A DNA stretch of 63,650 bases, counting the filler, from Reclinomonas americana ATCC 50394 (Eukaryota): assembly GCA_048213135.1 (NCBI GenBank). It is 16 parts of 16 records of this genome, joined end to end, with 100 filler letters (N's around TTAATTAATTAA, not from the genome) between each part and the next. Parts side by side here need not be neighbours in the genome. Positions count along the whole stretch, not along the records: positions 27,744 to 28,785 come from AFZH01018833.1; positions 28,886 to 29,894 come from AFZH01018834.1; positions 29,995 to 34,551 come from AFZH01018835.1; 13 more parts are not named here. One strand, written 5' to 3'. Of the stretch, positions 7,372-62,235 are shown one piece after another. Each line of letters starts with the position of its first letter. The first letter of the stretch is position 1. The translations under genes and the position numbers were made by a program. The notes under the pieces were generated by a model, which was not told the origin of the DNA, made no database searches, and saw only the letters and a list, made by a program, of their open reading frames with translations.

Positions 7372-7471
7372 NNNNNNNNNNNNNNNNNNNNNNNNNNNNN
7401 NNNNNNNNNNNNNNNTTAATTAATTAANNNNNNNNNNNNNNNNNNNNNNNNNNNNNNNNNNNNNNNNNNNN
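7372..7471. other. artificial contig spacer (first of 15; others start at 15879, 17365, 20240, 25995, 27644, 28786, 29895, 34552, 41662, 46749, 54200, 57772, 60029, 62136)
   Basis: Identical 100-nt N-run/TTAATTAATTAA/N-run linkers with stops in all six frames. Confidence 0.98.
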
Positions 7472-8103: not shown

Positions 8104-8601
8104 CGAATTTTTTCTGCAACATAATGCCACAGTGTCAAATAAAAGAACGCAATTCTGTACCAGAGAAGGGGAAGAGGCAGGGGGTGGAAGGAGGGAGGGA
8201 GAGAGAGAGAGAGATAGTAACAAGAGGGAGAACGGGCAAGAGAGTGCAGTCGACAGGATCTGAGGTGCATATCGATCCAGATCTGGAAATTAAACTCCGC
8301 CCTCTCTGGAATATCTCTTTTGCAGGTGCTCGCTGAGGAGGGCGACCCTTATGCTCGTCCGATCAGCGACCTTTCGAGCTGCTTCACTTGTCGTGAGGCA
8401 TGCTCCCTCAAAAAAACCGAACACATCACCGGTATTTAAATTTGCCTTCCATCTTGCTCCTCTCACCGCCACGACGATTGATCAAGCTGGCGTACGCAAG
8501 CACAACGCCATTGAGACCAGGCAGTGAGCACACCAGGCGTACAAAGCACGTCGTCAATCGTCCCGCTCATTGTCCTCTTATCTTCTTCCTTTCCACACGA
8601 C

Positions 8602-11103
8602 ATGGCCTCCTCCTCCTCCTCCTCTCCCTCCTCTCACACAGAACGAGTAGACGCACGCGGACTGTACAACTGGCTGCAGCAACTCGGCTCAGGCGTTCGT
8701 CTATACAAGGGCGAGCGTGGGATCATAATAGACGCACGTCGAGCACACGCACAAGAGAGTGTGGTTGCTCTGCGCAAGGATGTGCTCTGTGCACCGAGCA
8801 ACAGTGCCTTTTGTGCAGTGGTCAGCATACCACAAGAGGATGGTGTGTTCTCTCTCACTCACCACAGACAGCATGCGTGCATTGATGACAGCAATGCAAC
8901 TCATTGTACAATGACAGATGGTGTGCGCGAGTTGTCTCCTGTGGATCTTGCTGCGCATGTGTTGGTCAGTGCGTTTGGGGAGGCTGTGGAGGGTGCGTCG
9001 AGTGCACTGGTCAAGAGCACTGTGGTGATTGTGTTGGAGGCGTGTGAGAGGTGAGGGGGAGGGGAAGGGAGTGGATGAGGAGGAGAAGGGGAAGGTCGCA
9101 GAGGTGGGCATGTGCACCTGCGAGCAGCTTGAGTCGCAGAGACAGAGGCCGCGACAGGATAAGGGCACAGGGAGAGAGAGAGGGGGGAGAGAGAGAGAGT
9201 GAGAGAAAGAGAAAAAGAGAGAGAACAGGCCTTTGTGGTCGCCTGTCGCGCAGCGAGAAGAAGGGCAAGTGGAGTGTTGATAGAATTCGGAGTGCAGAAA
9301 GACGACCGAGTGAGGGCAATGGCCATAGGTCCTTCTTCGCAGCCCACGCTTATCCTGTTCTTCTCCTCTCTCGTAATCGAGGAATTCTGCTCAATTCTTT
9401 GCAACGCAGAGCTGCAGATACAGACAGAGAGCAGGTCGAGAACAGGCACTGTGCAGCGAGCGACAGAGCAGGTGGAGTGACCTAGTAATGCAAGGGAGCT
9501 CACTCTCATCTTCTAGCTCCGTCCCTCCTCTTTCGTGCATCCTCTGCTGCATTCTTTGCAACCCAGATCTGCAGAGACGGACCTGCGTCAGGAAGAGAGA
9601 CAGAAACCTCGTCACGAGCAATGAGGATTGCCCTTCGACAAGTGAGAGCCAATGGCAGATGTTGTGCAGAAGCGCGAGAGGCTCGGAAAGAGCTAGTTTT
9701 TCTTTGCTGCTCACTCTCATCCCTCGTTCTCCTTCATTCTCCGCAGATCGACACTGGTGGACAAGCTTGTCGAGTCGGGTGCGTTCTTGAGTGTGGTGCA
9801 TTATGCAGGTAAGTCCATTGCGCTGTGCGTGCTCTCTCTCTCTCTCTGCTCGTCAGTCCTACCTCGCCACCCACAACCCTCTGTGCACCCTGCTGTGCAG
9901 AGTCCTTTGCGGCCTTTGCCAAGCAGTACCCGTTCATGTGCGTGCGCCCCACGGCGACCACCGCGCCGCAAGCAAGAACGGAGCGGAGTCGCTGCTGTGA
10001 GTTGCTCTTGTGTCATCGGGCAGACTTGATAAGCCCTGACGCTTTTTCCGGCGACAGTGAATCTCTTGCGTGCTCTCGGAAGCAAGAAGAAGAGCAAGGA
10101 TGCTGAGTATCCGGCGCACGTGGCCGATCATTGCTTCCTCGGCAGGTATGCGTGTGCACGTCACTCGATCGTTTCGCACGAGTTCGACTGACGTTGAGCA
10201 TGAACAGCTTCTTGTATCACGCCAAGTGCCCAGTGGTGCTGCAGGATTTGGTGCGTGGGGTAGTTACAGTAGTCGTCTTACATCTGCGTCGCTCGCCTCT
10301 CTCGCATTCTGTCTCAGTCGTCACTCAATCATTCTTTGTGCTCTTCTGTCATCCCGCGTCGTCCACTTACTTCGCTCGCTCAAGTCTCTTGTCCCCCAGT
10401 GCTCATGCATCCGTTGTTGCTCGTCTTCGTTCTTTTTTATTGCCACCCTGTTGTTGTTCATCTGTTCTCGTCTTCCTCACTTCTCTTCTTGCTTCCCCCT
10501 CCTCTCCCTTTCCTCCCCTTCTCCTCGCACCTCTCCTTTCCACAGCGCATCACGCACATCCTGAACGTGACGGCGGAGACACCGAATGCATTCGAGGGCG
10601 AGGACTGGGTGCAATACGAGCGCATCGATGTGCACGACACGGTGACGGAGGACCTGTCGGCGCACTTTGAGCGCGCCTTTGCCTTTATTGGTGCGTGTGC
10701 CGCTTGTCACTCCTCCTGCGCTCCTCTGACACGTCTGCGCACACAGAATCTGCGCGAGAGGCGGGCGGGCGAGTGCTGGTGCACTGCGCAGTGGGGTTCG
10801 TGCATGCCCTTTTCTTGCGATTGCTTGTCGCTCACACTCTCGCTTTACAGCAAGAGTCGATCGGCCTCCATTGTCCTATCGTACTTGATGCGTTGGCGCT
10901 CGATACCAATGCGTGAGGCCCTGGAGGAGGTGTGGCGGGCGCGACCGTGGGTGCAGCCGAACATGGGCTTTGTGGCGCAGCTCCGTCGCTTGCAGCGCGA
11001 GCTCGGCATCGTCGGCAACGGTGGCGAGCACGGCGATGGAGATGTAGAGAGAGATGCGCTTGTGGAGGAGGAGGAGGAGGCTGAGGAGGAGCAGGAGAAA
11101 TGA
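8602..11103 (+). CDS. dual-specificity (MAPK-type) phosphatase with N-terminal rhodanese-like domain
   Basis: N-terminal IIIDAR; catalytic domain YPAHVADHCFLG...ITHILNVT...VLVHCAVGKSRSASIVLSYLM...RPWVQPNMGFVAQL with an intact HCxxGxSRS after splicing. Confidence 0.9.
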
Positions 11104-15330: not shown

Positions 15331-15991
15331 GTATGGAGATGGAGAAGGGAGGATGGGAGGTTGGGAGGAGGGGGGAAGAGGGAGAGAGGGAAAGTGAGGG
15401 GGAAGACGAAGGTGGAAAGAGAGAGAACACAGGGAGAGTGAAATAGGCAGGGACGATGGAGAGAGGGCAGAGGGCAGTCTCGCTCGTTGTGTGTAGGTGT
15501 CTCTCTCTGACACTTGCTTCTGGGAGGTAAAGGACGTTTCTTCTCTCCTTTTCTCGCTCTTTCTCTCTCCTTCCTGCTGTCACTCACCGTTGAAGGAGAA
15601 GCAGATGGAGGCGTACTAAGTGAGAGGAAGCTGGGAGTGATCACAACTGAAAACAGTTGAGATGGGAAGCGGTGCGACTGTTGTTGGTTAGGTGCAGGGA
15701 GACAGATTGAGAGAGAGAGAGAGTGAAATGTGCACGGAGATATCTGAAGTTTCTCGCATTCTCGTTCTCGTTCTATCTGTCTCCCGCCGTCTACCTCACA
15801 TACTTGGAAAGGATACCGAGAAGGAGACGCGCACCGTTAGAGAAACTGACAGTGAGACACAAGTTGAGGTGAAACGCTNNNNNNNNNNNNNNNNNNNNNN
15901 NNNNNNNNNNNNNNNNNNNNNNTTAATTAATTAANNNNNNNNNNNNNNNNNNNNNNNNNNNNNNNNNNNNNNNNNNNNGTGAGAGAGAAGA

Positions 15992-18767: not shown

Positions 18768-21383
18768 TTATAATGCGATAAATCCGTCGTCGTCTTCTTC
18801 GTCCTTCTTGGCCTCGTCGAAATCGTCCGGATCCGTGTTGGAGAATGCCCGCTTCTTGGCCAGTCGGGCGGCGGCATCAGAAGGCGACGACGATGAACCG
18901 GCAGCGGCCTGCTTCAGCGCAGGATGTCAGTTCGTGCATTGTCACAGCTGTGGAAATCAACAAGTACGCACGCACCCTGACGTAGCCCTTGACCTTCCAC
19001 TGGTCCTTGCTCGACTCCATGACTTCGCTCGACACCACACACCGATACGCCTTGCGCGACTCGCCGCGCACCACCGCCCTCCGGCAGTTGTCCGTCACGA
19101 AATGCTTGGCCGACGAGAAGTCGGCACCCGCCAGTGCGCCGCTGTGTGCGGGCACAGTGAGAGGACGATGATGGGAAGAGGGCGGATGAGTGAGGACGCA
19201 ACAGATTGGTCACGTCGTATGGACCGCGCACAAGCAGGGGTTCCGAGGAGCCGCAGGAGAAGATGAGCGCCTTGTATTTGAGCAAGCGCAGGAGAGTCAT
19301 GACGTTGCTGACAAAGTAGCGTCGTGCGCCGGCGTCTGAGGGAGGGTGCGGGTGTGTGAGGAGGTCGGTGAGAGGGGAAAGGGAGGGGGAGAGAGGGGGG
19401 AGGGGGAGAGAGAGCCACGACAAGAGCAAAGAGCGTGACAGGAGAAAGTGTGTCAGAGAAGAATACAGAAGTTGAGGGAAGCCCTTGCGTTTGAAAGGTG
19501 ACTCGGAAGTTAAACCAAGTCGTCACGCTGAGAGAGAGAGAGAGAGAGAGAAAATGCACCTGAAGTGCGCAGTACATGCAAGGAACAGGGGGAGATAACG
19601 CGATTCAACTGCGTGCAGGAAATGACAACCGAGTCACCGCGTTGAGACAAAGAAAGAGTGTAAAGAGAGAGAGAGAGAGAAATGTATGCACTTGAAGTGC
19701 ACTACATGAGACGGAGGAGACAACGCGCTTGAATTGTGCGCCGGAGACGCCAACCATGTCGTCAAGCTGGAGACAGGAAAGAACGCACTTCAGGCGTGCA
19801 CGGAGGAAAGGAACAGAATGCAGAAGAAGACAACCACTTCGTCGCGCTGACAGAGAGGGAGAGAGAGAGCGAGAGAGACAGAGAAAGAGAAAAGGAAGCA
19901 ATACACGTGCCACAGAGGAGATAGCGTGCTTGAACGGTGTGTGTGAGAGAAAAGAGAGTGTTCGCGAACGCGTGCGGCAGCGTCCAAGATTAGGAACGAC
20001 TCGGTTGACCTGCACCCTGTCCTTCCCCCCCTTCTCCCACTCACCCTTGATGGCCGTCCCATAATTGGCCTCCAGCACGACCTCACGCGCACGTGCCTGG
20101 CTGAGAATCTTGAACTTGAGCGGGTACGCCGGTCGCTGACACACATCCAACACGATAATGTCGGCATCCACCGATGCACAGCACGTGCGCAGCGTGGCCT
20201 CCGACTCGGGCTGCACCGCGACGAGATCGAACTTTTGCANNNNNNNNNNNNNNNNNNNNNNNNNNNNNNNNNNNNNNNNNNNNTTAATTAATTAANNNNN
20301 NNNNNNNNNNNNNNNNNNNNNNNNNNNNNNNNNNNNNNNGCGAACGAGCTCGTCGAGGCGGTCTGAGAGGGTGTTCTGCGCGGGAGGGAAAGGGAGGGTA
20401 TAAAGGGAAAGAGAAGCAAAAAGGGGAGTGAGAGAGAGAGAGAGATAATGAGAGAGAGAGAACATGGCGGGGATGGAGGAGAGGAGGGATGATGGGAAGG
20501 AGAGCGAGGAAGTGAGGGAAAGGAAACAGAAGGAGCAAGTGGTGAGAACGGAGAGGGCAGAGGAGAAGGGTGCAGTAATGGAGAGAGAAGAGGGAAGGGA
20601 AGAGAGAAGGAACGAGCGGTGGGAAAGGTGGGTGCGGAGACGACAGAGGAGAAGGGCACAATAATCGAGAGAGGGAAGGAACGACTCATGGGAAGGTGGG
20701 AATGGAGAGGAAGAGTGCAGTGAGCGAGAGGCGGAAGGAAAAGGGAAAGCGAAGGAGCAAGCAGTGGGAAAAGGTGCGAATGGACAGGAGAGAGGAGAAG
20801 GGAAGGCGAGCGAGGGAGTGAAGGAAAGGAAAGAGAAGGAGCAAGTGGTGAGAATGGAGAAGACAGAGGAGAAGGGTGCAGTGAGAGAAGGAGGGAATGG
20901 GAGGGAGAAGGAGGGCATGGAACGAGTGGTGGGAAAGGTTGAGAAGGGTACAGTAATGGAGAGAGAAGGAGAGAAGGGAAGAGAGAAGACACGAGGGGTG
21001 GGAAAGGTGGGAATGGAGAGGAACAGCACAGCGAGTGAGAGGCGAGAAATGAGAAGAGCAAAGGAGGGAAAGAAAGGGCAATGCAGAGACTTACGGACAG
21101 AATGCATGCAATGAGAGAATGCAAGGACACTCACCAGTGCATCACTGGCCACTCGATCGCGCACAGTGACACTGAGCGCAATGCATTCAAAGCCATCTGA
21201 ACATGAGAAAGACAGTCAGTCAACAATGCACTCTCTCTCTCTCTCTCACACACACACACAGTCAACCAACACTGCAACTCTCTCTCCACCTCTCACTCTC
21301 CGCACGCAACATTCAATGTACACATCAATCAGCTCGCCCACACTCTCCACACCAAGACCATCGACAACCACGTTCAAATCCAT
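18768..21383 (-). CDS. RPP30: RNase P/MRP subunit p30 (spans gap at 20240)
   Basis: MDLNV...YGFECIAL; AVQPESEATLRTCCASVDADIIVLD; VVLEANYGTAIK; RRYFVSNVMTL; LIFSCGSSEPLLVRGPYDVTNL. Confidence 0.85.
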
Positions 21384-27552: not shown

Positions 27553-27605
27553 CAATTGAAGTGATGTGTTACATACATTCTGCGGGGCGGAGGGGGGGTG
27601 GGGGC

Positions 27606-27643
<38 letters not shown>

Positions 27644-27779
27644 NNNNNNNNNNNNNNNNNNNNNNNNNNNNNNNNNNNNNNNNNNNNTTAATTAATTAAN
27701 NNNNNNNNNNNNNNNNNNNNNNNNNNNNNNNNNNNNNNNNNNNTTCTCTCAACCACTGATCTAATTTAGTTTCCATATA

Positions 27780-27905
27780 TTATAATGTAACATTTTTTTT
27801 ACTCTCATCAATCTTGACATCAATAACCTTTACATCACAGCATGAACTACAAGTTGATTTACATTTTAAATTCTTGAAGAATATTTTTATTTTATTCCAG
27901 AACAT
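27780..27905 (-). CDS. 41-aa viral small protein (basic, Cys-rich)
   Basis: MFWNKIKIFFKNLKCKSTCSSCCDVKVIDVKIDESKKNVTL*, below the ORF-track cut-off. It is packed between neighbours, preceded by a TCTA/AT-rich motif, and the next ORF (METKLDQWLRE...) starts at 27776. Confidence 0.6.
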   Translation of the reverse strand: MFWNKIKIFFKNLKCKSTCSSCCDVKVIDVKIDESKKNVTL

Positions 27906-27926
27906 CTTTATACTATTATGTAGAAA

Positions 27927-28785
27927 TTAAATTACATTATTCCAAATGTAAAATGTGGCTCCAAAATATGGAAAATCTGTGAGTGTTCCGTTGCTATTAC
28001 TCCATAAATCAATTCGATAGTCTGTTCCTGTGTATACCATATTAAATGTTACATTGCTAAAACTTGATCCATTTGTGAAATCACAAGTAACTTTACCATA
28101 CATATTTGATGCTGTCGGGAACAGAGAGCCTGAACCGTCTACACAAATATTATAACCCGCAATGTATCTATAACAACCAATTTGTGTGGTTGAAGGGCTT
28201 GATGTGTTAGCAAATGTTAAAGCTGTTCCACCATCAAACCTAATTACTTCACCGTGCCAAACATTACCACTACTTGCAAACCACATTCTAACAATTCCTT
28301 TCCATGGGCTTGAAAATCCACCACCAGATGCCCAAGAATATGAGCCACTGGAATATGTTAAAACACCGTTACTTGGCGTTGTTCCCGCTATTGATGTTAA
28401 TATACTATTCAATGGTTGTTTCTCTGAATCTAGTTCATTAATGGCATTTTGTACAGTAACAGCTGATATATTTCCAGCTGGTACATTAGTGACTTGTGAT
28501 GCTGTATAATCTCCATTAGCACTAGTTATATTTCCGATTCTATTAAAAACAGTCCTTACAGCATCAGTATTATCTACTTTATCATAACCTTGAACACCAT
28601 TAGATATGCACCAATCTCCAACACTAAAAGATATACCGAATTGTGTTCCGCCATTTGTAACAATCCAGTAATACCCCAAATTAGAACTACCAGCGGTCGG
28701 TAATGCAGGGGAATCATTTTGTGCATCCCATGTTCCTTGATATTTGACATTACCAAGTAAACTATCATTAATTTGAGACAATGGG
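27927..28785 (-). CDS. phage tail-fibre-like protein, C-terminal part
   Basis: YQGTWDA, GDWCISNG..KVDNTDAV..VF.R.G.I....GDY and PAGNISAVTVQNAINELD are modules I recognise from bacteriophage fibre/structural proteins. Open to the gap. Confidence 0.65.
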
Positions 28786-28885
28786 NNNNNNNNNNNNNNN
28801 NNNNNNNNNNNNNNNNNNNNNNNNNNNNNTTAATTAATTAANNNNNNNNNNNNNNNNNNNNNNNNNNNNNNNNNNNNNNNNNNNN

Positions 28886-29894
28886 GACCCACTCGGTATC
28901 GATGGAAATGTAGCAAGGGATAAGTCACCACGAAAGTATTGTGATGTTGTTCCAGTTGTTATTGTGTTTTGTTTTCCAGATTGTAAACTAGAAATATTAC
29001 TATTAGCTGTTGTCATTTGACCTTGTAATGTTGTTATGTTACTATTAGCTGTTGCTATGCTAGATGTGTTTGATGATATATTACTATTAGCTGTTGTCAT
29101 TTGACCTTGTAATGTTGTAATGTTGCTATTAGCGGTTGATATGCTAGATGTGTTTGATGATATGTTACTATTTGCCGTACTCATTTGACCTTGTAATGTA
29201 GATATATTTGAACTATTTGTAGAGGTTGCTGAGGCTATTGAATTCAAACTATTATTACTAGTTCCATAGTTACTAACAACATCATTTGCAGAATGTATAT
29301 AACCAGAACCAGTATAGTTAATAGCTGAAATATTACCTTCATACACACTTAAAGACCCACAATTAACCTCATTACAATCAAGAATGTCACATTGAATATT
29401 GCCAGATGACTCAATAGATGTTGCATAAACTTTTGCCAAATGTGAGTCTCCTTCATCATTTGTGGCTATAGTTATATCACCATATAGTCCTGATAAATGA
29501 ATTGATTTAGCGTCAATATCTCCTGAACTATTAACGACAAAATCACCATTAGTTAATTCATTATCTTCAGTAGTATAAAGTGGTACCCAAACACCTAATC
29601 TTTTAACATAGATATCTTCAAAACTAGCTTCATTACCGCTAATATCATGGCATGTAACATCATGTACAGTCATATTACCTGTAACATCAATGTCATTATC
29701 AACGTCTAATGATGAGGCTATTAATTGCGTTGTAGCATGCATTAATGGGGCTACTACTGAGCCAGTTGTTTGGATAATAGGCAATCCAGCATTATTTGAT
29801 CCATCTAAATAAACAGTTACAGATTTAGGGTCTTCTTCATCATATAATCTAATGGCCTTTTCTGAATATAAATCACCAGTCAAGGTCCCACCAG
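28886..29894 (-). CDS. fibre-like protein fragment with trimeric coiled-coil repeats
   Basis: Open across the whole contig. Begins GGTLTGDL, has beta-rich repeats, then 28-aa (84-nt) repeats TANSNITTLQGQMTTANSNISSNTSSI and KQNTITTGTTSQYFRGD. Confidence 0.7.
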
Positions 29895-30124
29895 NNNNNN
29901 NNNNNNNNNNNNNNNNNNNNNNNNNNNNNNNNNNNNNNTTAATTAATTAANNNNNNNNNNNNNNNNNNNNNNNNNNNNNNNNNNNNNNNNNNNNACTTTA
30001 TGGGTTTTCTACGAGGTTGAAAGAGATGTTGCCCTTGCTGAAAATGTTATCCGTGTTTTCTAAATAGTTTGACGTGATATGTATCATTCTAAGTATCATT
30101 ATTGATATTTACAATGTGATGCCA

Positions 30125-30198
30125 ACTCCGATGAACACTCCGATGACAACTCCTATGACGACTCCGATGATCGGAGTGGTGATCGGAGTTCGGAAACT
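30125..30198. repeat. palindromic array of 12-bp iterons
   Basis: ACTCC(G/T)ATGA at 30125, 30137, 30149, 30161, then inverted TCGGAGT at 30171 and 30183 (plus degenerate TCGGA at 30190). The centre is ACTCCGA-TGA-TCGGAGT. Confidence 0.85.
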
Positions 30199-30509
30199 AT
30201 TAATATCTCTAGGACCATCTTCTTAGGATCTTGATGTTTTATTGTGATTTTATAATTCTCATCTATAGGTTCTTTCTCTATCTCTTTTGGTGGTTCTGTC
30301 TTCTCAGGCTCTTTTGGTGGTTCAATCTTAGGTGGTTCGATATTCAACCTACTAATATGATATTTCGATGCTAAATGCCTTTGTAAATGGACTCGAGCAA
30401 ATTTTTTTTTACATGAGTGACATTCTATTTTCTCAAGCATTTTTGTCATAATCTTTTCTTTATTCTTTTCATAATAATTTTTTGCATACTCTGTTGAATT
30501 TGTGACCAT
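30153..30509 (-). CDS. viral C2H2 zinc-finger protein
   Basis: EYAKNYYEKNKEKI...CHSCKKKFARVHLQRHLASKYH followed by EPPK repeats; typical small zinc-finger of virophages, PLVs and NCLDVs. Confidence 0.75.
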   Translation of the reverse strand: MVTNSTEYAKNYYEKNKEKIMTKMLEKIECHSCKKKFARVHLQRHLASKYHISRLNIEPPKIEPPKEPEKTEPPKEIEKEPIDENYKITIKHQDPKKMVLEILIVSELRSPLRSSESS

Positions 30510-30617
30510 ATATATATAGTATAGAAATTATTCTTTATATATAGTACGCATAAATAATTAATGAAAAATGGTTTAAAGAATAATTAATATCTTATATATA
30601 TAATATAATATATAGAA
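30510..30617. promoter_or_regulatory. divergent viral promoter
   Basis: TAAAGAATAATT followed by a TATATATA tract precedes the ATG on both strands (inverted copies at about 30526-30537 and 30574-30585). Confidence 0.6.
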
Positions 30618-33600
30618 ATGAAAACTTCTGTTATTAAAAATCTGGTTAATGGCTTGTACTCAAAGAATCTGTTATATAGTAACTTGAGAAATAATATTTT
30701 AAAATCAGTCGATAATTATTCCACATTAAGGTCTAAGAAAAATAAGACAGCATCAGATAAAAAAACACTTGTTAGATATGAGAGTGCCTTAAAAGATCGT
30801 CTTATATTGTTAAATGATTTGAAGAAATACAAAGGTCGCAAGGTAAAAACACTCAAGGACGCACGTGATAATATAATTACAGGTATATACAATGAAAATT
30901 TACCATCAACAAATGCTATTGAAAATTTCAACTCATCAGCAACATCAAATCACAAGAAAAGGGATGAATTGGACAAAGATAAAATTAATAAACGTGTCAA
31001 AGCTGAACATTATATGACATTAGATAATATCAAAGCAAAATATGGAGATGCCATTTCCAATTCATGGAAGAATGTAAGCCCTATTGAAGTAACAGAGCAA
31101 AATGAAAAATTAATTGTTAATAACATGTTGGGATTATTATCAAGTTCTGAAAAGGTCTCAGCAAATACAACTATATTTATTCAATGGAAATTGAAATACA
31201 GTGATGAAGATTATAGATATATGAAACAGCCATTTAAGTTTGCATTGAACGGTAAAAATGTAAAAGAGTTTGTTGCATATATTAGAAAAACTGTTCCTGA
31301 GAAAATCAATAATCTCACAAGCAATCCACAAAATGAAGTCTATGAAGTCAGCATTGTTGCGTTTAGATTGTTGATTGTAAAGACCCCAACTGCTGGAGGA
31401 TGTGATGGTGATTACCACAGAATTAAAATAGATAATGTTGTATTGGATAGTGTAAAGTCTGTCAAGAATAACTGTTTATCTGCATGCATAACACATAAAT
31501 TAAAAGAATTAGATAAGAACTATGTTAAACCAAATGTAAATAAATTCAGGGCTGATTGTGGATTTGAAATTGGAAAACCTATTGATATTAGTGAATTAGA
31601 TGTTGTTGCAAATTATTATAAATGTATTATTGTTTTACATGACAGTATGGGAGAAGTATTGAGTAAACATGGTAGAGAAGGACATCAGATTAATATTTGT
31701 TTCAGATATGGACATTACTATCTTATCAGTAACATTGATCCTAAAATATACAAATATTGCAAGAAATGTTGTATGCATTATTTGAAAGTACATACATGTA
31801 ATTCAACCAGATTACGCGAAATGGAACACAGGAGAAAACAAAAGGGACAAATATCAGTATCAAGCAAACTTAAAAAGAAACCTTTGAATATTAACAATAA
31901 TATATTCTTTGATTTAGAAACATTCGGCTTAGATGGTTATGAAACAGATAATTTTTCAAATCATCAAGTATATGCATGTGGTTTATGGAAAGATGGAGAA
32001 TATAAACAGAAATATGGGAAAGATTCAATTGATTTATTAACAGATGAAATTAAATCAATTTATTACGCGGATAATAAACTAAAGAAAGACAACAAGAGTT
32101 ATAATATATGTGCATATAATGGAAGTGGATTTGATTTCTATTTCTTAGTTGATATACTGATTAGCAAAGGTGCATATATTGAACCATCATCTTTTATTAT
32201 TAATCATGGTAAGTTAATTAGTTTTAAATTCAGATATGGTGGACAAAATAATAAATTGTGTAGAGTGTGGGACTTATATTTGTTCTTATTATCATCATTA
32301 AAAGATGCTGGTGATGCATTTGATATTCCGAAGGAGTTGAAAAAGATGGACTTTGATCATGAAAAAGTTAAAACATGGGATGATGTTATTAAATATAAAG
32401 ATGAGGTTGAACCATATCTTAAAAATGATGTATTGGGATTCAAGCATATATTTGAAGTTTTCTCAACATTTATTTATGATACATTCAAAGTACATATCAC
32501 TGATTTCTTGACATTGTCTCATATGACCTATCATCTTTGGGTTTCACAAAATAATTTCAATATATATTTGCCAAGTTATGAAGATTATAAATTTATTTCA
32601 CGAGCAATTTACGGCGCTAGATGTTATCCTATGCAGAAGAAATACATATCCAAACATTATGATGAAATAATAAATGCTAAAAGTGATGAAGAAAGAAAAC
32701 AAATGTACAACAAAATGGAAGATTTCATTTTCAATGGGGATATTGTATCATTGTACCCATCATCTATGAAAAATAAATATCCTGTTGGAAAGTCTAGATG
32801 GTTGACAAAAGAAGAAATTCAAAGTATTAATCTGAAAAATATCCAAGTTGGTGTTTATGAAATAAGTTATATTTGTAATAAGAAAATATTAATTCCAATC
32901 TTACCAAAACATACAAATAATGGAGGATTGTTATGGGATTTGCATGATGGAGAGGGAGTTTATACAAGTGTTGATATAGAAAATGCTTTGAAATATGGAT
33001 ATCAAATTACAATTAAATCAGGTATGGTGTGGGATGAAACTCAATCGGTATTCTCTGATTATATTGATAAAACATTTAAGATTAAGAAACAAGGTGATGA
33101 GGAATCAAACAAAGTATTGAGAGCATGTGGAAAACTTTTGATGAATGCCTTGTATGGAAAATGTCTTCAGTCAGCCATTATTTCAGATACAAAAATATGT
33201 AACAATTTGCAAGATGTTTATGATTTTATGCAAACAAATGAAATCAGTGATTGGACAAACTTTGGTGATAAAATAATGTTAACTGGAGAAACACTTGATC
33301 AATATAAACATTCTAAAGTAAATAAACCAAGACAATTAGGCGCTTTTATTCTAGGTTATTCAAGAAAGATTATGTTAGATTCAATGAGTAAAATTGATCC
33401 TACATTAAATACACATTTCTTTACATATAGCGATACAGATTCTCTACACGTTCCAAATGAATTAATTAGTAAGACAAGAGATCTTTTAGGAGAAGATTTA
33501 GGTATGATGAACAATGATATTAAAAATGGTGGACGCATCATTAAAGAATTTTGCATTAGTCCTAAATGTTACATGTATGTATATATTGATAAAGATGGAC

Positions 33601-33839
33601 ATGTTAAGACAACTATGAAATGTAAGGGTATTACTTCAAAATATTTATTCCCTGAATTATATTATGATGATAGTTTAAATAATTTAGATAAGGTAATTGA
33701 AATGAAGGGATTGAAGAAATATAGAGATGGTAATTTCAGTATTAGAAATTGTAAACAAACAAGATCATTTAATAAAACCGAATATGATAGAATGGATTGT
33801 ATAGATGGTTGTTATTATCCCAAAGGCTATATTTTCTAA
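30618..33839 (+). CDS. polB: protein-primed family B DNA polymerase (1073 aa) with N-terminal TP-like and vOTU-like regions
   Basis: Exo I FFDLETF, Exo II AYNGSGFDFYF, Exo III YLKNDV; polymerase motifs DIVSLYPSSM, KLLMNALYGK, YSDTDS, PKCY, KCKG. Intact ORF. Confidence 0.95.
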   Translation: MKTSVIKNLVNGLYSKNLLYSNLRNNILKSVDNYSTLRSKKNKTASDKKTLVRYESALKDRLILLNDLKKYKGRKVKTLKDARDNIITGIYNENLPSTNAIENFNSSATSNHKKRDELDKDKINKRVKAEHYMTLDNIKAKYGDAISNSWKNVSPIEVTEQNEKLIVNNMLGLLSSSEKVSANTTIFIQWKLKYSDEDYRYMKQPFKFALNGKNVKEFVAYIRKTVPEKINNLTSNPQNEVYEVSIVAFRLLIVKTPTAGGCDGDYHRIKIDNVVLDSVKSVKNNCLSACITHKLKELDKNYVKPNVNKFRADCGFEIGKPIDISELDVVANYYKCIIVLHDSMGEVLSKHGREGHQINICFRYGHYYLISNIDPKIYKYCKKCCMHYLKVHTCNSTRLREMEHRRKQKGQISVSSKLKKKPLNINNNIFFDLETFGLDGYETDNFSNHQVYACGLWKDGEYKQKYGKDSIDLLTDEIKSIYYADNKLKKDNKSYNICAYNGSGFDFYFLVDILISKGAYIEPSSFIINHGKLISFKFRYGGQNNKLCRVWDLYLFLLSSLKDAGDAFDIPKELKKMDFDHEKVKTWDDVIKYKDEVEPYLKNDVLGFKHIFEVFSTFIYDTFKVHITDFLTLSHMTYHLWVSQNNFNIYLPSYEDYKFISRAIYGARCYPMQKKYISKHYDEIINAKSDEERKQMYNKMEDFIFNGDIVSLYPSSMKNKYPVGKSRWLTKEEIQSINLKNIQVGVYEISYICNKKILIPILPKHTNNGGLLWDLHDGEGVYTSVDIENALKYGYQITIKSGMVWDETQSVFSDYIDKTFKIKKQGDEESNKVLRACGKLLMNALYGKCLQSAIISDTKICNNLQDVYDFMQTNEISDWTNFGDKIMLTGETLDQYKHSKVNKPRQLGAFILGYSRKIMLDSMSKIDPTLNTHFFTYSDTDSLHVPNELISKTRDLLGEDLGMMNNDIKNGGRIIKEFCISPKCYMYVYIDKDGHVKTTMKCKGITSKYLFPELYYDDSLNNLDKVIEMKGLKKYRDGNFSIRNCKQTRSFNKTEYDRMDCIDGCYYPKGYIF

Positions 33840-33850
33840 CCATATAATAT

Positions 33851-34551
33851 ATGGATAGTGTTATTAGAAAGGTTTGGGTTGATAATAATTACCCAAGTTT
33901 ATTAAAGTTATTTGATATAATGAAAAAACAAGGATATAAAATAACTGCATCACAGATAAAAGAATTTTTAAACAAACAAGAATCAAATCAGATAGGTAAA
34001 CAATATAAGAAAAGTAAGAGTTTCAATACTATTTTGGCGCCTAGCCCTGCCTATAATATGCAAATGGATATTATGGTTTATAATAGATTTGAGTTTAATA
34101 AGTATAAATATGTTTTATGTTGTATTGATGTATATAGTAGGAAGGCATATTGTGAGCCTATGACAAATAGGGAAGGTAAAACAATTTTAGAAAATGCCAA
34201 GAAAATATTTAATAAGTTCGGTAAATTCCCTATTAATTTAAACACAGATAATGAATTTAATTTTAAAGAGTTTGTTGATTATCTTGAAAAGAACAATGTT
34301 AAATTATATTTGTCATTTGCTGATGATATTATTGATAGTAAGAACAGTATTATTGAAAGATTTCATAGGACATTAGCTGGAATGATGAAGAGATATAGAG
34401 ATAATACCAAGGATTATAATTGGAGTAGTTGGATAAATAAAATAGTTGATTCATATAATAATCAATATCATAGGACTGTTGATGCTACCCCTAATGAAAT
34501 ATGGAATGGAGCCGAACCAAATCAGAAAATAAATAAAGTTGAGAGTAAATA
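33851..34551 (+). CDS. retroviral-type (rve) DDE integrase, 3'-truncated by the gap
   Basis: MQMDIM (D), YVLCCIDVYSRKAY, LNTDNEF (D), IIERFHRTL (E), YNNQYHRTVDATP; Polinton/mavirus-type integrase. Confidence 0.93.
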
Positions 34552-34651
34552 NNNNNNNNNNNNNNNNNNNNNNNNNNNNNNNNNNNNNNNNNNNNTTAAT
34601 TAATTAANNNNNNNNNNNNNNNNNNNNNNNNNNNNNNNNNNNNNNNNNNNN

Positions 34652-37600
34652 GGCACGACTTCGTCCTCGGCACTCTTCATCGCCAGAATATTCTCGCTGC
34701 CTTCAAACTCCAGCTCGGCAATGGCGTCGAAACACTTGCGCAAATGCGGCTGCACGGAGCGCGGCTCACGAGTTTGCGACAGAATGGCCAGCAGCTCGTC
34801 GTTCGACAGGAAGTAGAATCGCGGGAAGGCTGCTCGCTTGGTTTCCTGTTGCCGAGTGAAAAGCAAAAAGTGAGAGAAAGTGTGACGTGAGAAAGGCGTG
34901 GCGTGCAACCGTCACGCACCAGGTACTCTTCGAGGCTCTTTTGCACAGCATCGAGGGTGCGGTTGGCGTTCTGGAACATCTCGAGCACACCCGGCGCCGT
35001 GCACAATTGCAGCACGTTCGGGTTGTTGTGTGCCTTGCGCAGTTGCTCTGCACAGAAGGAGTCAGGAAGCAGAACGAGGGAGGGGGGTGTAGGCGCCGTG
35101 TTTGAGACAAACGCACCCTTCCACTGCTTGTCGACCTCCTGGAACAAGGTGGACTCCTTCGGCAACTGCTTCTGGATATCCTCGGACGAGAAGATGAACT
35201 CGAGGTACATCCAGTTGCGCTGGCATGTGGTCCACTCGTCCAGCACCTCGCTCACCACAGAGAGGCGAGTGTCCCACAGCTCAATGTCCTTCTTGATTCC
35301 ACCCACATAGCGGTGACCCATCATGGCCGACAGCTCAATCTGGTTCTCCTCAAGCTGCGTGGTGACCTCCTCCACACCGCCAATGATAAAGACGTCGCGC
35401 TGCTCGCGGTGGTTCTTGACCTCGAAGCACAGCTCGTCCCAGGTGCTGACAATGCCCTGCAGCTTGGTCTCCAGCGATGACTCGCCTTGCGCCTTGGCCG
35501 CCTCCTGCTCCACAATCTCGCGATCTGCAGTCGCCACCCAGTGAGTTTAACAAAAGAAGAGCTCCTCTCTCTCTCTCTTGTATGGGAATGGGAGACGCAA
35601 CGATCGCAAATGTTGGAGGACAGCAGGGTGCCGACCGTGTAATCGCGGTCCTTGAAGTAGTGCTTGTCCATGGCCTGGAAAATCGCACGCCAGTGGCGCT
35701 CCTTGAGAGTCGTGCCGGCCACAGCGGCAATCACCGGCACCTTCTCCATCCAGTCGCGGACCTCGGCCTTGAGCATCTCCGCAACTTCGTCGGGTCCACT
35801 GCCTGTCGCAGCACCGCGCTTGGCCAGACGGAATGAAGCGACCGAGAGGCCCTGGCCAGAGTCTTGCAACTCCTGGCCGTCGAGTGCGGTGATCTCCGTG
35901 GTCTCCCACTCCTCGCGACGCTGACGGAAGTTGGCCAGCGTCTCCCACAGCTCCTGCTCGTACTTGAACTGCGCGTCGGCGGCCGCCAAGTTCTCCCACT
36001 CTTGACCACGAAGCTGCGCAACAAGGAAGAGAAAAAGGTTGAGCAAGAAGACAAACAAACAAATGGGTACACGCAATCAAGAGAGACGCAACTCCAAAGA
36101 GCTGAAGGTAATGCGAGTACGTGACTGTCTTCTCGCGGTAGGCGTTGAGGTTCTCCTTGACATTGGTGAGCACCTCGAGCACGCTCTCGGGGTCGGACTC
36201 GGGGTCCTTGAACATTCCCGAGCGTAGCGAGAGCATCAGCTTGAGGATGGAGGCCTCCAGATCGCGAATGGCCAGCTCCAGCTTCTCGCTCATGCTCTGG
36301 CGCAATCCGTCGGCGTAGTCCTCGGCCTGCGAGAACATCTTCTGGAAACGCTCTCCGAGCTCCGTCAAGTTCTGGAAGCGCACGTGGTCCTCCATGCCAA
36401 TGTCGACCTTGTGCTGATCAATGAGCACGCTCATGGCCGTGACCTCCTCCACCATGTGGGTGCGGTCTTGGTAGCGCGCACGAATGGCGTTGAGGTTCTC
36501 CACAAACATGGCGAAGCGGTCGAGCTGGTCGGGAGTGGACTCCAGTTGCTGTGACGCACAAACACACAATCAGAATCAAAGACGAACGAATACGGGGAGG
36601 AAAATGGCAGCGCTCACCTGCAAGTCATCCTCTAGAGCACCGACTGCCTCGATACACGCGTGGCGGAAGGTGTTCTGCAGCAGCACCTTGGTGCGTGCCA
36701 AAATACGCTCCGTCTCGTCCTTCAAATCCGTCTGCATGGCCTTGTGGTCGACAGTGATCACGCCGAGGCGGTCGACGGCGCGCATGCTGCGGGGAGAAAG
36801 CAAAACATCAGTCAGCAACACCGCGCACGATGCGACCTACTACTTGACTTGTCACGCACCCCTTGATCTCCTTCTCGTTCTTGTTGATGCGCTTAAAGTC
36901 CTTCTCCAGCTGGTACGCCGACAGCGTCTCGGTGTTGTAGGCGTTCTCGTTCCACGAGTGCACGTACTCGTACACGGGCAGGAAGCCGGCGTACTCGGCA
37001 ATGGCCGCCGAAGTGACCTTGTCAAAGTCGCGATGGACGATGCGCGACGAGAGTGTGCTGACGCTCTGGAACACTGGTGTCGAACGCACCGAGTCGCCAA
37101 TGGGAATGGCGTGGACGGTGGTGGCAGTGGCACCGCGGCGGTCCTCGCGGAAGTACTCGGCCAGGTGCTGGTTGAAAATCACACGCGGCACGTGGTTGAC
37201 CAGCGCAATGATGTGCTCCAGGGTGTTGCCGACGGTCTCCTTGATCTCGGACTCGACAGGCGAGAAGAGGATCTTGCCGTCGCGGAACGAAATGATGATC
37301 TGGAAGACCAGTGGTCTCGGCTCACGCGGCCACGACAGCGTGCTGAGGAAGCGTGCCGAGATCTCGCACGTCGACGAAATCAGTTGCTCGGCGACCACGA
37401 AATCGGCCAGGCGGACGACTGCACAGTAGCGAGTATGAGAAAGGGAGGAAAAGGGAACAAGAGAGAGAGGGGGGGAGTGCGACGCACAATCTTTCAGCAT
37501 GCCCTCCTCGGCCTGTGCACGACGCAAGGCCTTCTGACGCTCCTTCAGCTCCTGCGCCTGCTCCGTCATGGACTTGATGCGGCGGCCCTTCTTCTCGGGT

Positions 37601-41621: not shown

Positions 41622-41761
41622 GACTCTCTCTCTCTCTGTTCCTCTCAGTGTGCGTGTTGTCNNNNNNNNNNNNNNNNNNNNNNNNNNNNNNNNNNNNNNN
41701 NNNNNTTAATTAATTAANNNNNNNNNNNNNNNNNNNNNNNNNNNNNNNNNNNNNNNNNNNN

Positions 41762-61282: not shown

Positions 61283-62235
61283 AGCCCTGGCGCGACACAT
61301 GTGTGCGTGTGTTGGAATTGTACCGGTTATCTCGCGCGAGCGGCGATGGGACAGTCTGCTTCGCGCGCGCGCTCTCTCTCTCTCTCTTCGCTCCACCGCC
61401 CGTTTCCCCACTCGCCTGCGTCATTGGTGGGGCATGGATGCGCCGAGTCGCCGAGTCACCGTCGCGGCAAATGCTCGAATTTCGAGTTCGAAGTCATGCG
61501 AGACTCTCTGTTGCCCACGCGTCGGCTTGATGGCCACCACCTCCGTTGCATCGGTGTGCTTGCGGCCCCAAGGATCGCGCCGCTCCGAGCCCCGCGGCTG
61601 GGAGGCAATCGGAATTTCTTTCGTTATTCGATCATGACCCACAATCCGCGGGGACACTCGGCTGTCTGCGCGCATATGACGGTCCACGCAAACCATGTAA
61701 AGTCCAGGAATGCCGGGGTGGCCGGGCATCCGAGACGCAACTCGGGTGTCATGTCATCTCGTTGTTCCTTTTTGCATCATTCTTTTTTGCCCGACCACAA
61801 ACCACTGCCGGAGAATCCAGAACCACTTCCACAGTGGAGAGGTAGCTGCTTGTCTCTGCCACTTGCACACTGCAGCGCCGATCCGCCTGCAGCCTCGGCA
61901 GGTGGTGGGCTGGCAGCGCTTCTCTTTTTTTCCTTGCTGGTTCGAGATATCATCATTATACACTTACACAGCTCATAGTAAGGGGCGCGCCAGCTCGCCT
62001 GGCCTTCGCTCCAACTCTGGGGGGAACGCAATGTCGATGGCCGTGCGATTTCGTTGTGCGCGCCCTCTCTCCTCGTCTTCGTCACTGCTGTCGTCCGAGT
62101 TGAGATCGTCGACGAATCGTGGACCGCTGTCGCCCNNNNNNNNNNNNNNNNNNNNNNNNNNNNNNNNNNNNNNNNNNNNTTAATTAATTAANNNNNNNNN
62201 NNNNNNNNNNNNNNNNNNNNNNNNNNNNNNNNNNN

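Follow-up and report, generated by a model that had tools for sequence, protein, structure and literature searches.

We analyzed a stretch of 63,650 nucleotides (hereafter, the window) from the genome assembly of the protist Reclinomonas americana ATCC 50394 (GCA_048213135.1), in which an AT-rich block at positions 27744-34551 carries genes for a family B DNA polymerase of the protein-primed type (pPolB), an rve integrase, a small zinc-finger protein and a tail-fibre-like protein. The window is made up of 16 contigs of 1.0-8.4 kb, and all of its 15 joins consist of one identical 100-nt linker. The AT-rich block comprises three consecutive contigs of 1042, 1009 and 4557 nt, which occupy positions 27744-28785 (34% G+C), 28886-29894 (34%) and 29995-34551 (28%), respectively. 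The G+C content of the block was thus 28-34%, compared with 51-59% in the remaining 13 contigs, in agreement with a first-pass annotation that had been made from the sequence alone and had described AT-rich DNA at this place. The same annotation had treated 27744..34551 as one stretch, which has to be corrected: linkers at 28786-28885 and 29895-29994 split the block into its three contigs. The two leftmost contigs, on which the tail-fibre-like gene is found, were absent from that annotation.

On the 4.6-kb contig, a single open reading frame (ORF) at 30618-33839 on the plus strand encodes a pPolB of 1073 aa, so the gene is uninterrupted, as had been reported. Its product matched PF03175 (DNA_pol_B_2) at 2.8e-57 (195 bits, with a cut-off of 25.8), and a profile built from it and 22 relatives (23 polymerases) matched the structure of the phi29 polymerase (1xhx) at 3e-8 over profile positions 679-828. 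In the alignment of these 23 sequences, both the exonuclease motifs (D432/E434, D506 and Y600/D604) and the polymerase motifs (D708, K839...Y846-G847-K848, D939/D941 in YSDTDS942, and K983xY985) were invariant. A region resembling vOTU cysteine proteases (GGC...NNC286...H366Y, ~31380-31727) was also recognized, with Cys286 (NNC) and His366 (HY) invariant in the 23 sequences and no OTU match shown by Pfam. Between this region and the exonuclease lies a zinc knuckle (C381xxC384...H392xC394). A vOTU-like cysteine protease domain at the equivalent position is described in the pPolBs of polintons, mavirus and plasmids in a study of 2024 (PMC11071308), where it is proposed to free the terminal protein. 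The N-terminal region of the window polymerase (~aa 1-224) was poorly conserved and is presumed to be the terminal protein.

Immediately downstream on the same strand is the rve (DDE) integrase gene (33851-34551, +), which matched PF00665 at 7e-12 (45.9 bits, cut-off 32.6) and, weakly, structures of retroviral integrases (E 1.4e-3). With the last base of the polymerase stop codon at 33839 and the ATG of the integrase at 33851, there remains between them the spacer CCATATAATAT at 33840-33850 (+), which bears out the 11 nt originally given for it; the spacer together with the integrase ATG gives TATAATATATG. The integrase had been called intact. This holds for the triad of its rve domain, D73, D133 and E169, the first two of which were invariant and the third nearly invariant among 16 sequences, but not for its length, as the contig end cuts the gene at residue 233. 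Fifteen aligned homologues run ~110-130 residues beyond this point with a conserved C-terminal domain (GDKVR...YSKE). The C-terminal domain is missing solely through the contig end (233 of about 350 residues are present), and signs of decay were none. The co-occurrence of pPolB and rve integrase in one element, which had been invoked as the hallmark of Polintons/Mavericks, is also real: the two genes share a contig and a strand and stand 11 nt apart.

The two 1-kb contigs carry pieces of a tail-fibre-like gene on the minus strand. The first piece, fibA (27927-28785, -), is open at the contig end and encodes a C-terminal part of 285 aa plus stop codon, and the second, fibB (28886-29894, -), is open at both contig ends and encodes an internal part of 335 aa with TLQGQMTTANSNIS coiled-coil repeats that have an 84-nt period in the DNA. 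Both matched, in a colinear manner, a 1089-aa protein on a 17.8-kb contig (P0272): residues 91-335 of fibB aligned with its residues 254-428 (48-56% identity), and residues 7-281 of fibA with its residues 808-1088 (50% identity). This colinear match marks fibA and fibB, on sequence grounds, as two pieces of one tail-fibre-like gene. In addition, they stand in the window in the order and orientation of P0272, which shows a non-random order of contigs within the block. As many as ~380 codons may be hidden behind the linker that separates them. A 33-aa ORF at 30099-29998 was considered as the N-terminus of the fibre and rejected; it has its own stop codon, and its alignment score with P0272 was reached by 9 of 300 shuffles. 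Downstream of the fibre gene are a Cys-rich ORF of 41 aa (27780-27905, -; seen in translation only) and the first 11 codons (METKLDQWLRE) of an ORF at 27744-27776 (-) that runs off the left contig end. The ATG of the latter is preceded by TATAATAT, a start-codon context common to this ORF and the integrase.

Sequence comparison indicated that the polymerase has many relatives. Searching 1.84 billion representative proteins exhaustively with HMMER returned 2338 relatives at E<=1e-3 and 556 at E<=1e-30, the nearest being at most 45-46% identical. Single-protein scans of IMG/VR with the polymerase, the integrase and P0002 (one of the relatives) found no relatives; by pattern scans, 19 IMG/VR loci and 76 metagenome loci were retrieved. 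The longer relative contigs were 15-22 kb in size with 28-41% G+C, and relatives on such contigs were accompanied by genes for a Pox_A32 packaging ATPase, Lipase_3, an adenain/Ulp1-like protease and collagen-like or other large fibres. Relatives on contigs of at least 14 kb encode the A32 ATPase, including the integrase-bearing loci L040, L050, L063 and L078, and some of them also encode the protease and a capsid-like protein. The capsid-like family (A2 alignment; a well-conserved 438-aa family, ~420-440 aa in length), whose gene stands beside the ATPase gene in L063 and L078, had 420 relatives in a word-indexed search. Twelve of its 26 aligned members weakly matched PF16903 (Capsid_N; best E 8e-4, under the Pfam cut-off), and its neighbours in a protein atlas carry double jelly-roll (DJR) and nucleocytoplasmic large DNA virus (NCLDV) capsid Pfam families, which we treat as a lead only. 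Capsid and penton candidates of locus L007 had no match at E<=0.1 in a phmmer search against PDB sequences, and the A2 profile yielded nothing meaningful. The gene set of the relatives is that of polinton-like viruses (PLVs), as far as excerpts of two sources describe it (10.64898/2026.06.19.733378; PMC10120064). On the basis of this set of ATPase, protease, lipase and capsid-like genes, we assigned the element to PLVs.

The arrangement of polymerase and integrase was also found in the relatives. Among the 67 loci with 600 nt or more of sequence downstream of the polymerase, 25 had an rve homologue there on the same strand, and the gap was less than 400 nt in 22 of these. Thus, polymerase followed by integrase is a recurrent module of the group. 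Polymerase trees, which contained metagenomic sequences only and no named references, were built with both FastTree and IQ-TREE; in each, the window polymerase paired with P0002 (support 100) and then with P0007 (98-99). Integrase-bearing loci were spread over sister groups, and the integrase label needs at least four changes on the tree. The window integrase was 49% identical to that of L041, which sits in another polymerase clade. This distribution fits either an ancestral integrase with losses in some lines or exchange of the module. An approximately unbiased (AU) test that held the integrase-bearing rows and the window trio together rejected this grouping; as the grouping cuts across interspersed rows, the result was not used. 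In the clade nearest to the window polymerase (L001-L003, L032-L037 and L046), no rve integrase was detectable downstream; in L001, the polymerase is followed by a 347-aa ORF without Pfam match, which may be a different integration or accessory gene.

Taken at the sequence level, the window polymerase is a new lineage of a well-known and very common kind, and the replication and integration module of a PLV-type element is genuine and apparently functional, its genes being interrupted nowhere but at contig ends. It appears quite probable that the AT-rich block is an incomplete piece, in three contigs, of the genome of a small double-stranded DNA (dsDNA) virus of the PLV/virophage supergroup (Preplasmiviricota) that was co-assembled with the protist. 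The first-pass identification as Polinton/mavirus-like stands with respect to the polinton/virophage/PLV supergroup, but 'mavirus-like' is more than the window supports, as it holds no capsid, penton, ATPase or protease gene. By comparison with the relatives, the window would show approximately one-third of such a genome, and ~10 kb with capsid, penton, packaging ATPase and protease genes would be missing. The 4.6-kb contig represents the replication and integration end of a genome of this kind. In mechanism, the N-terminal part of pPolB would act as terminal protein and prime the replication of a linear genome, and the integrase would insert this genome into host DNA. The fibre gene, if it belongs to the same virus, would encode a virion fibre for attachment.

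Whether the fibre contigs and the polymerase contig share a genome is a separate matter, and we consider it reasonably probable that they do, because a start motif is common to the fibre and polymerase contigs and a repeat is common to fibB and a PLV fibre. First, the three AT-rich contigs are consecutive among the 16. Second, the block has three copies of the 11-mer TATAATATATG, with 0.08 copies expected, and none of 300 dinucleotide-preserving shuffles reached three. Two of the copies lie on start codons, one of the integrase on the polymerase contig and the other of the ORF that is truncated at the left end of the fibre contig. Third, the repeat of 14 residues in fibB, TLQGQMTTANSNIS, is found again without any change in the N-terminal coiled coil of a 1046-aa fibre (L108:9947-13084); L108 is a PLV-like IMG/VR contig of 19.7 kb that encodes an A32 ATPase, a lipase, D5_N and homologues of the penton and major capsid protein (MCP)-like proteins of L063/L078. 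Finally, GGAG, GAGG or AGGA was found by eye upstream of none of the five ORF starts in the block, including both on the fibre contig. Shine-Dalgarno-like motifs preceded 10 of 533 starts in PLV loci vs 105 of 236 in phage-like loci, and the commonest hexamers directly before ATG in PLV loci were TATATA, TATAAA, ATATAA and ATAGAA. The rate of such motifs could be a simple marker for separating PLV from phage contigs. The third copy of TATAATATATG (32100-32110, +) lies out of frame within the polymerase ORF and may be due to chance or be an internal start signal.

It should be noted that several observations weigh against a single integrase-bearing PLV genome. The window polymerase, P0002 and P0007 fall in a clade whose sampled loci lack integrase. 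Capsid, penton, ATPase and protease genes, one of the items that the first-pass annotation had proposed to look for, were found nowhere in the window by Pfam scans or by tblastn with 21 proteins of these kinds from relatives (nothing below E 0.04); thus, the term virus rests on the relatives and on the fibre gene. As the element is incomplete, its full genome may still have them. Terminal inverted repeats (TIRs), also proposed at that time, were seen neither in the AT-rich block, the ends of which lie inside ORFs, nor in four related contigs complete in length. With regard to the fibre, residues 1-124 of fibA were 47% identical to a 1870-aa tail protein on L020/L021, and the best matches of this region with known context were on tailed-phage contigs with terminase, tail sheath and tail fibre J genes. 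A fibA homologue was present in none of 94 polymerase loci, and P0272 matched only phage loci among those fetched. Codon usage was not discriminating, with a relative synonymous codon usage (RSCU) correlation of r = 0.92 between fibre and polymerase genes and 0.87-0.93 among unrelated AT-rich genomes. A fuller version of the one-genome reading, namely one deep-branching, integrase-bearing PLV genome with a mosaic fibre that is integrated or persistent in a culturable protist, is put forward tentatively, as somewhat less than an even chance; the mosaic fibre, which is part of this same tentative proposal, would combine the coiled-coil repeat of PLV fibres with a domain that shares 47% identity with domains from the tail fibres of tailed phages.

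To consider the relationship between the block and the host, the structure of the joins is essential. The linker has the form N44-TTAATTAATTAA-N44, in which TTAATTAATTAA gives a stop codon in all six frames. Copies include those at 7372-7471, 15879-15978, 27644-27743, 28786-28885, 29895-29994, 34552-34651 and 62136-62235, of the 15 in the window, and the copy at 27644..27743 (no strand) separates a host contig from the first AT-rich contig. Because the same artificial linker is used at every join, the adjacency of the block to host DNA is uninformative, and no linker-spanning feature in a window of linker-joined contigs can be trusted as adjacent. No contig mixes AT-rich with GC-rich sequence. 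Both outer ends of the block are inside ORFs (27744 in codon 11 of the leftmost ORF and 34551 in the integrase), and therefore neither is an element terminus or a virus-host junction. The place of the block between host contigs is an artefact of fixed-linker joining, and the simplest reading is a small three-contig viral scaffold that came to stand among host sequences unrelated to it as the pieces were joined into one string. The description of the element as embedded or endogenous could thus not be upheld: no contig holds a virus-host junction, the block ends inside ORFs and the linkers are uniform. The accompanying caveat, that at least one flank might be a false adjacency, was right and extends to both flanks. 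The dynein gene to the right of the block is indeed cut at 34652, as had been observed; its DHC_N2 match ends at this contig edge, and none of the 97 ORFs (150 aa or longer) that were scanned window-wide holds the dynein motor domain. No dynein match was found in the contig on the left flank. A search for sequencing runs that contain the 4.6-kb contig listed none, RNA data included. From the sequence of the window, integrated, free and contaminant states are indistinguishable.

One possibility, which we hold to be serious if short of even, is a non-integrated virus that entered the assembly along with the protist, being either free, persistently replicating or native to a different organism in the culture. 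The contigs are AT-rich right to their ends, the closest relatives are free-standing contigs of 15-22 kb from viromes and metagenomes, and the piece of genome, which lacks its continuation on either side, lies among unrelated host contigs. On the other hand, an abundant virus of ~17-20 kb usually assembles as one contig, whereas the pieces here are 1-4.5 kb, like those of the host, which suggests low coverage or several variants. The presence of an integrase also argues against this explanation.

A recently integrated, possibly active endogenous provirophage of mavirus type or a Polinton in the nuclear genome of the protist, which is what had been proposed initially, appears less likely than not. 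In its favour, an integrase with its D, D, E triad directly follows the polymerase. The fragmentation into pieces of 1-4.5 kb would fit several diverged genomic copies. A relevant case is L047:1-11882, on a 21.6-kb metagenome record, in which a polymerase-integrase end with 30% G+C runs, within the one contig, into DNA with 44-52% G+C that encodes 7tm_3, ephrin-receptor-like and laminin-G proteins, and which has the look of a genuine integration into eukaryotic DNA. PLVs and virophages in integrated form are described as frequent and often fragmented in protist assemblies in an excerpt of PMC10120064, and a second source, likewise in excerpt, reports such elements in 97 of 7041 eukaryote genomes (PMC13215967). 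On the basis of this in-contig junction and the published surveys, integration as such is plausible, at somewhat below even, and a free or contaminating virus is likewise plausible. Against the endogenous provirophage or Polinton in particular, the window contains no mixed AT-rich/GC-rich contig, all joins are one linker with block ends inside ORFs, a linker of this kind also cuts the dynein gene to the right, whose motor domain is missing from all ORFs scanned, and capsid genes of mavirus type are not in the window.

A mixed origin, in which only the 4.6-kb contig is of PLV type and the fibre contigs come from a tailed phage or prophage of an AT-rich bacterium in the culture, is rather unlikely in our estimation. 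The resemblance of fibA residues 1-124 to the L020/L021 tail protein speaks for it; on L020 this protein adjoins genes for terminase, a tail-sheath stabiliser and a head-tail adaptor. Furthermore, fibA matched PHROG families of minor tail protein (8e-12) and minor head protein (1.2e-18), 90 phage records matched it in tblastn, and the 94 polymerase loci contain no homologue. However, the three AT-rich contigs are consecutive with the fibre pieces in correct order and orientation, the start motif TATAATATATG is common to the integrase and the fibre contig, neither of the two fibre-contig starts has a Shine-Dalgarno-like motif by eye (vs nearly half in phage-like loci, as given above), and the exact 14-residue repeat is common with the fibre of PLV-like L108. 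Phage hallmark genes were found on neither of the two fibre contigs, and a scan of IMG/VR with P0272 gave short motif matches only. In the IMG/VR locus L022 (14.5 kb), the fibA match (8550-8948) lies in no ORF of at least 70 aa, and long standard-code ORFs are unusually few, which may reflect another genetic code or poor assembly.

The last alternative, a capsid-less element (linear plasmid, transpoviron-like element or polinton-derived transposon) with replication and integration genes only, is very improbable given that relatives on contigs of at least 14 kb encode the A32 ATPase and some also the protease and capsid-like protein, that a virion-fibre-like gene is probably linked, and that the rve integrase adjoins pPolB; mitochondrial and cytoplasmic linear plasmids are not known to carry rve integrases. 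It would account for the lack of a morphogenesis gene in the window, and capsid-less lineages related to mavirus-type polymerases are described in the excerpt of PMC13215967.

A CCHH zinc-finger protein of 118 aa is encoded at 30153-30509 on the minus strand, divergent from the polymerase. The earlier call of a C2H2 zinc finger was correct as to the CxxC...H...H pattern and is strengthened by a conserved family, and the Pfam match itself (zf-C2H2_2) was sub-threshold with E 0.011. In this family, C30, C33 and H45 were invariant, H51 was kept in seven of eight aligned homologues of related loci, and a YYEKNKE motif was conserved. Homologues occur in seven related loci and adjoin the polymerase in some of them; in L094 (856-1191) and L102 (870-1199), the zinc-finger homologue is directly downstream of the polymerase, that is, in the slot occupied by the integrase in the window. 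The AT-rich divergent intergenic region between the zinc-finger gene and the polymerase (30510-30617, no strand) presumably holds the promoters of both genes, and a 29-nt inverted repeat with 86% complementarity (30509-30537 / 30574-30602) was found there. The zinc-finger ORF has at its 3' end 4.4 tandem copies of a 12-nt unit, GATGACAACTCC (30118-30170, no strand), which lead into a short palindrome, ACTCCGATGATCGGAGT; together they are possibly a terminator between convergent units. No tRNA genes were found in the AT-rich block.

The 13 GC-rich contigs contain eukaryotic genes split across reading frames as if by introns, among them dynein DHC_N2, RNase P p30, aspartyl protease, ankyrin repeats and dual-specificity phosphatase. 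Of the 97 ORFs scanned, nine had a Pfam match, and none of these nine matched a viral family. Comparison for the continuation of host genes over linkers (RNase P p30 at 20239/20340, dynein at 41661/41762, and the left flank contig) was uninformative. Long CT-rich low-complexity DNA and a (GA)n microsatellite were observed at the ends of host contigs (20340-21000 and 27600-27643) and are likely reasons for assembly breaks there.

PLVs and virophages are very common in protist assemblies, and some have been reported to protect against giant viruses; a further incomplete copy changes this picture little. The finding nevertheless singles out the assembly for a screen aimed at the remaining parts of the virus and at remnants of giant viruses, warns against taking linker-joined contigs as integration, and provides a lead on fibre modules common to phages and PLVs. 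If the mosaic fibre and the single genome are true, adhesin modules would be moving between viruses of bacteria and viruses of protists, and if the virus resides in the culturable protist, a laboratory host would be available for the PLV lineage of the window.

Comparison with known systems places the element as follows. It differs from mitochondrial and cytoplasmic linear plasmids in the rve integrase adjacent to pPolB and in the fibre-like gene that is probably linked. Tectiviruses (Bam35, pGIL01 and AP50) and phi29 share with it the PF03175 family and the principle of protein-primed replication. The identity to polymerases of these types was only 25-27% over ~300 residues, and only the core aligned: the tectivirus matches covered residues 708-1010 of the window pPolB and the phi29 match profile positions 679-828, not the vOTU-like and zinc-knuckle region. 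Tectiviruses and phi29 are not known to carry an rve integrase. Polintons/Mavericks (Polintoviricetes) of animals and protists sit in eukaryotic chromosomes between TIRs and target-site duplications of 5-6 bp. With them, the element has in common their defining pair of pPolB and rve integrase, whereas the morphogenesis genes of its relatives are of a divergent PLV kind with weak Capsid_N matches, and the nearest sequences come from aquatic and soil metagenomes rather than from genomes of animals.

Mavirus-type virophages, which also have endogenous forms in flagellates and depend for replication on a co-infecting giant virus, have a small AT-rich dsDNA genome that is able to integrate. Compared by description, the window resembles these viruses (Maveriviricetes) in its rve integrase and in a pPolB whose Cys/His region may be a vOTU-like domain such as PMC11071308 describes. 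It differs from them in lacking virophage-type genes for capsid, penton, ATPase and protease and in the order of polymerase then integrase. In PMC13215967, the pPolB-carrying mavirus-related elements (pMVRE) are a monophyletic polymerase group of mavirus, transpovirons and PLVs, separate from Polintons and adenoviruses.

The closest likeness is to PLVs with a pPolB and rve module, represented by the metagenomic loci L063, L078, L039, L040 and L007 (16-22 kb), with polymerase identities of 34-40%. The window differs from complete PLV genomes in its extent, holding roughly one-third of such a genome and no capsid module, and from the PLVs sampled here in two respects: its polymerase forms a separate lineage with P0002 and P0007 at no more than 46% identity, sister to a group without integrase in the members sampled, and its fibre carries a domain otherwise seen in this study in tail fibres of tailed phages. 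Other features agree. The domain order of the polymerase is the same (N-terminal region, vOTU-like Cys/His, zinc knuckle, exonuclease and polymerase), the rve gene is directly downstream on the same strand, and a small CCHH zinc-finger gene is near. They also have in common AT-rich DNA, AT-rich motifs that abut start codons, an absence of Shine-Dalgarno-like motifs and large fibre genes.

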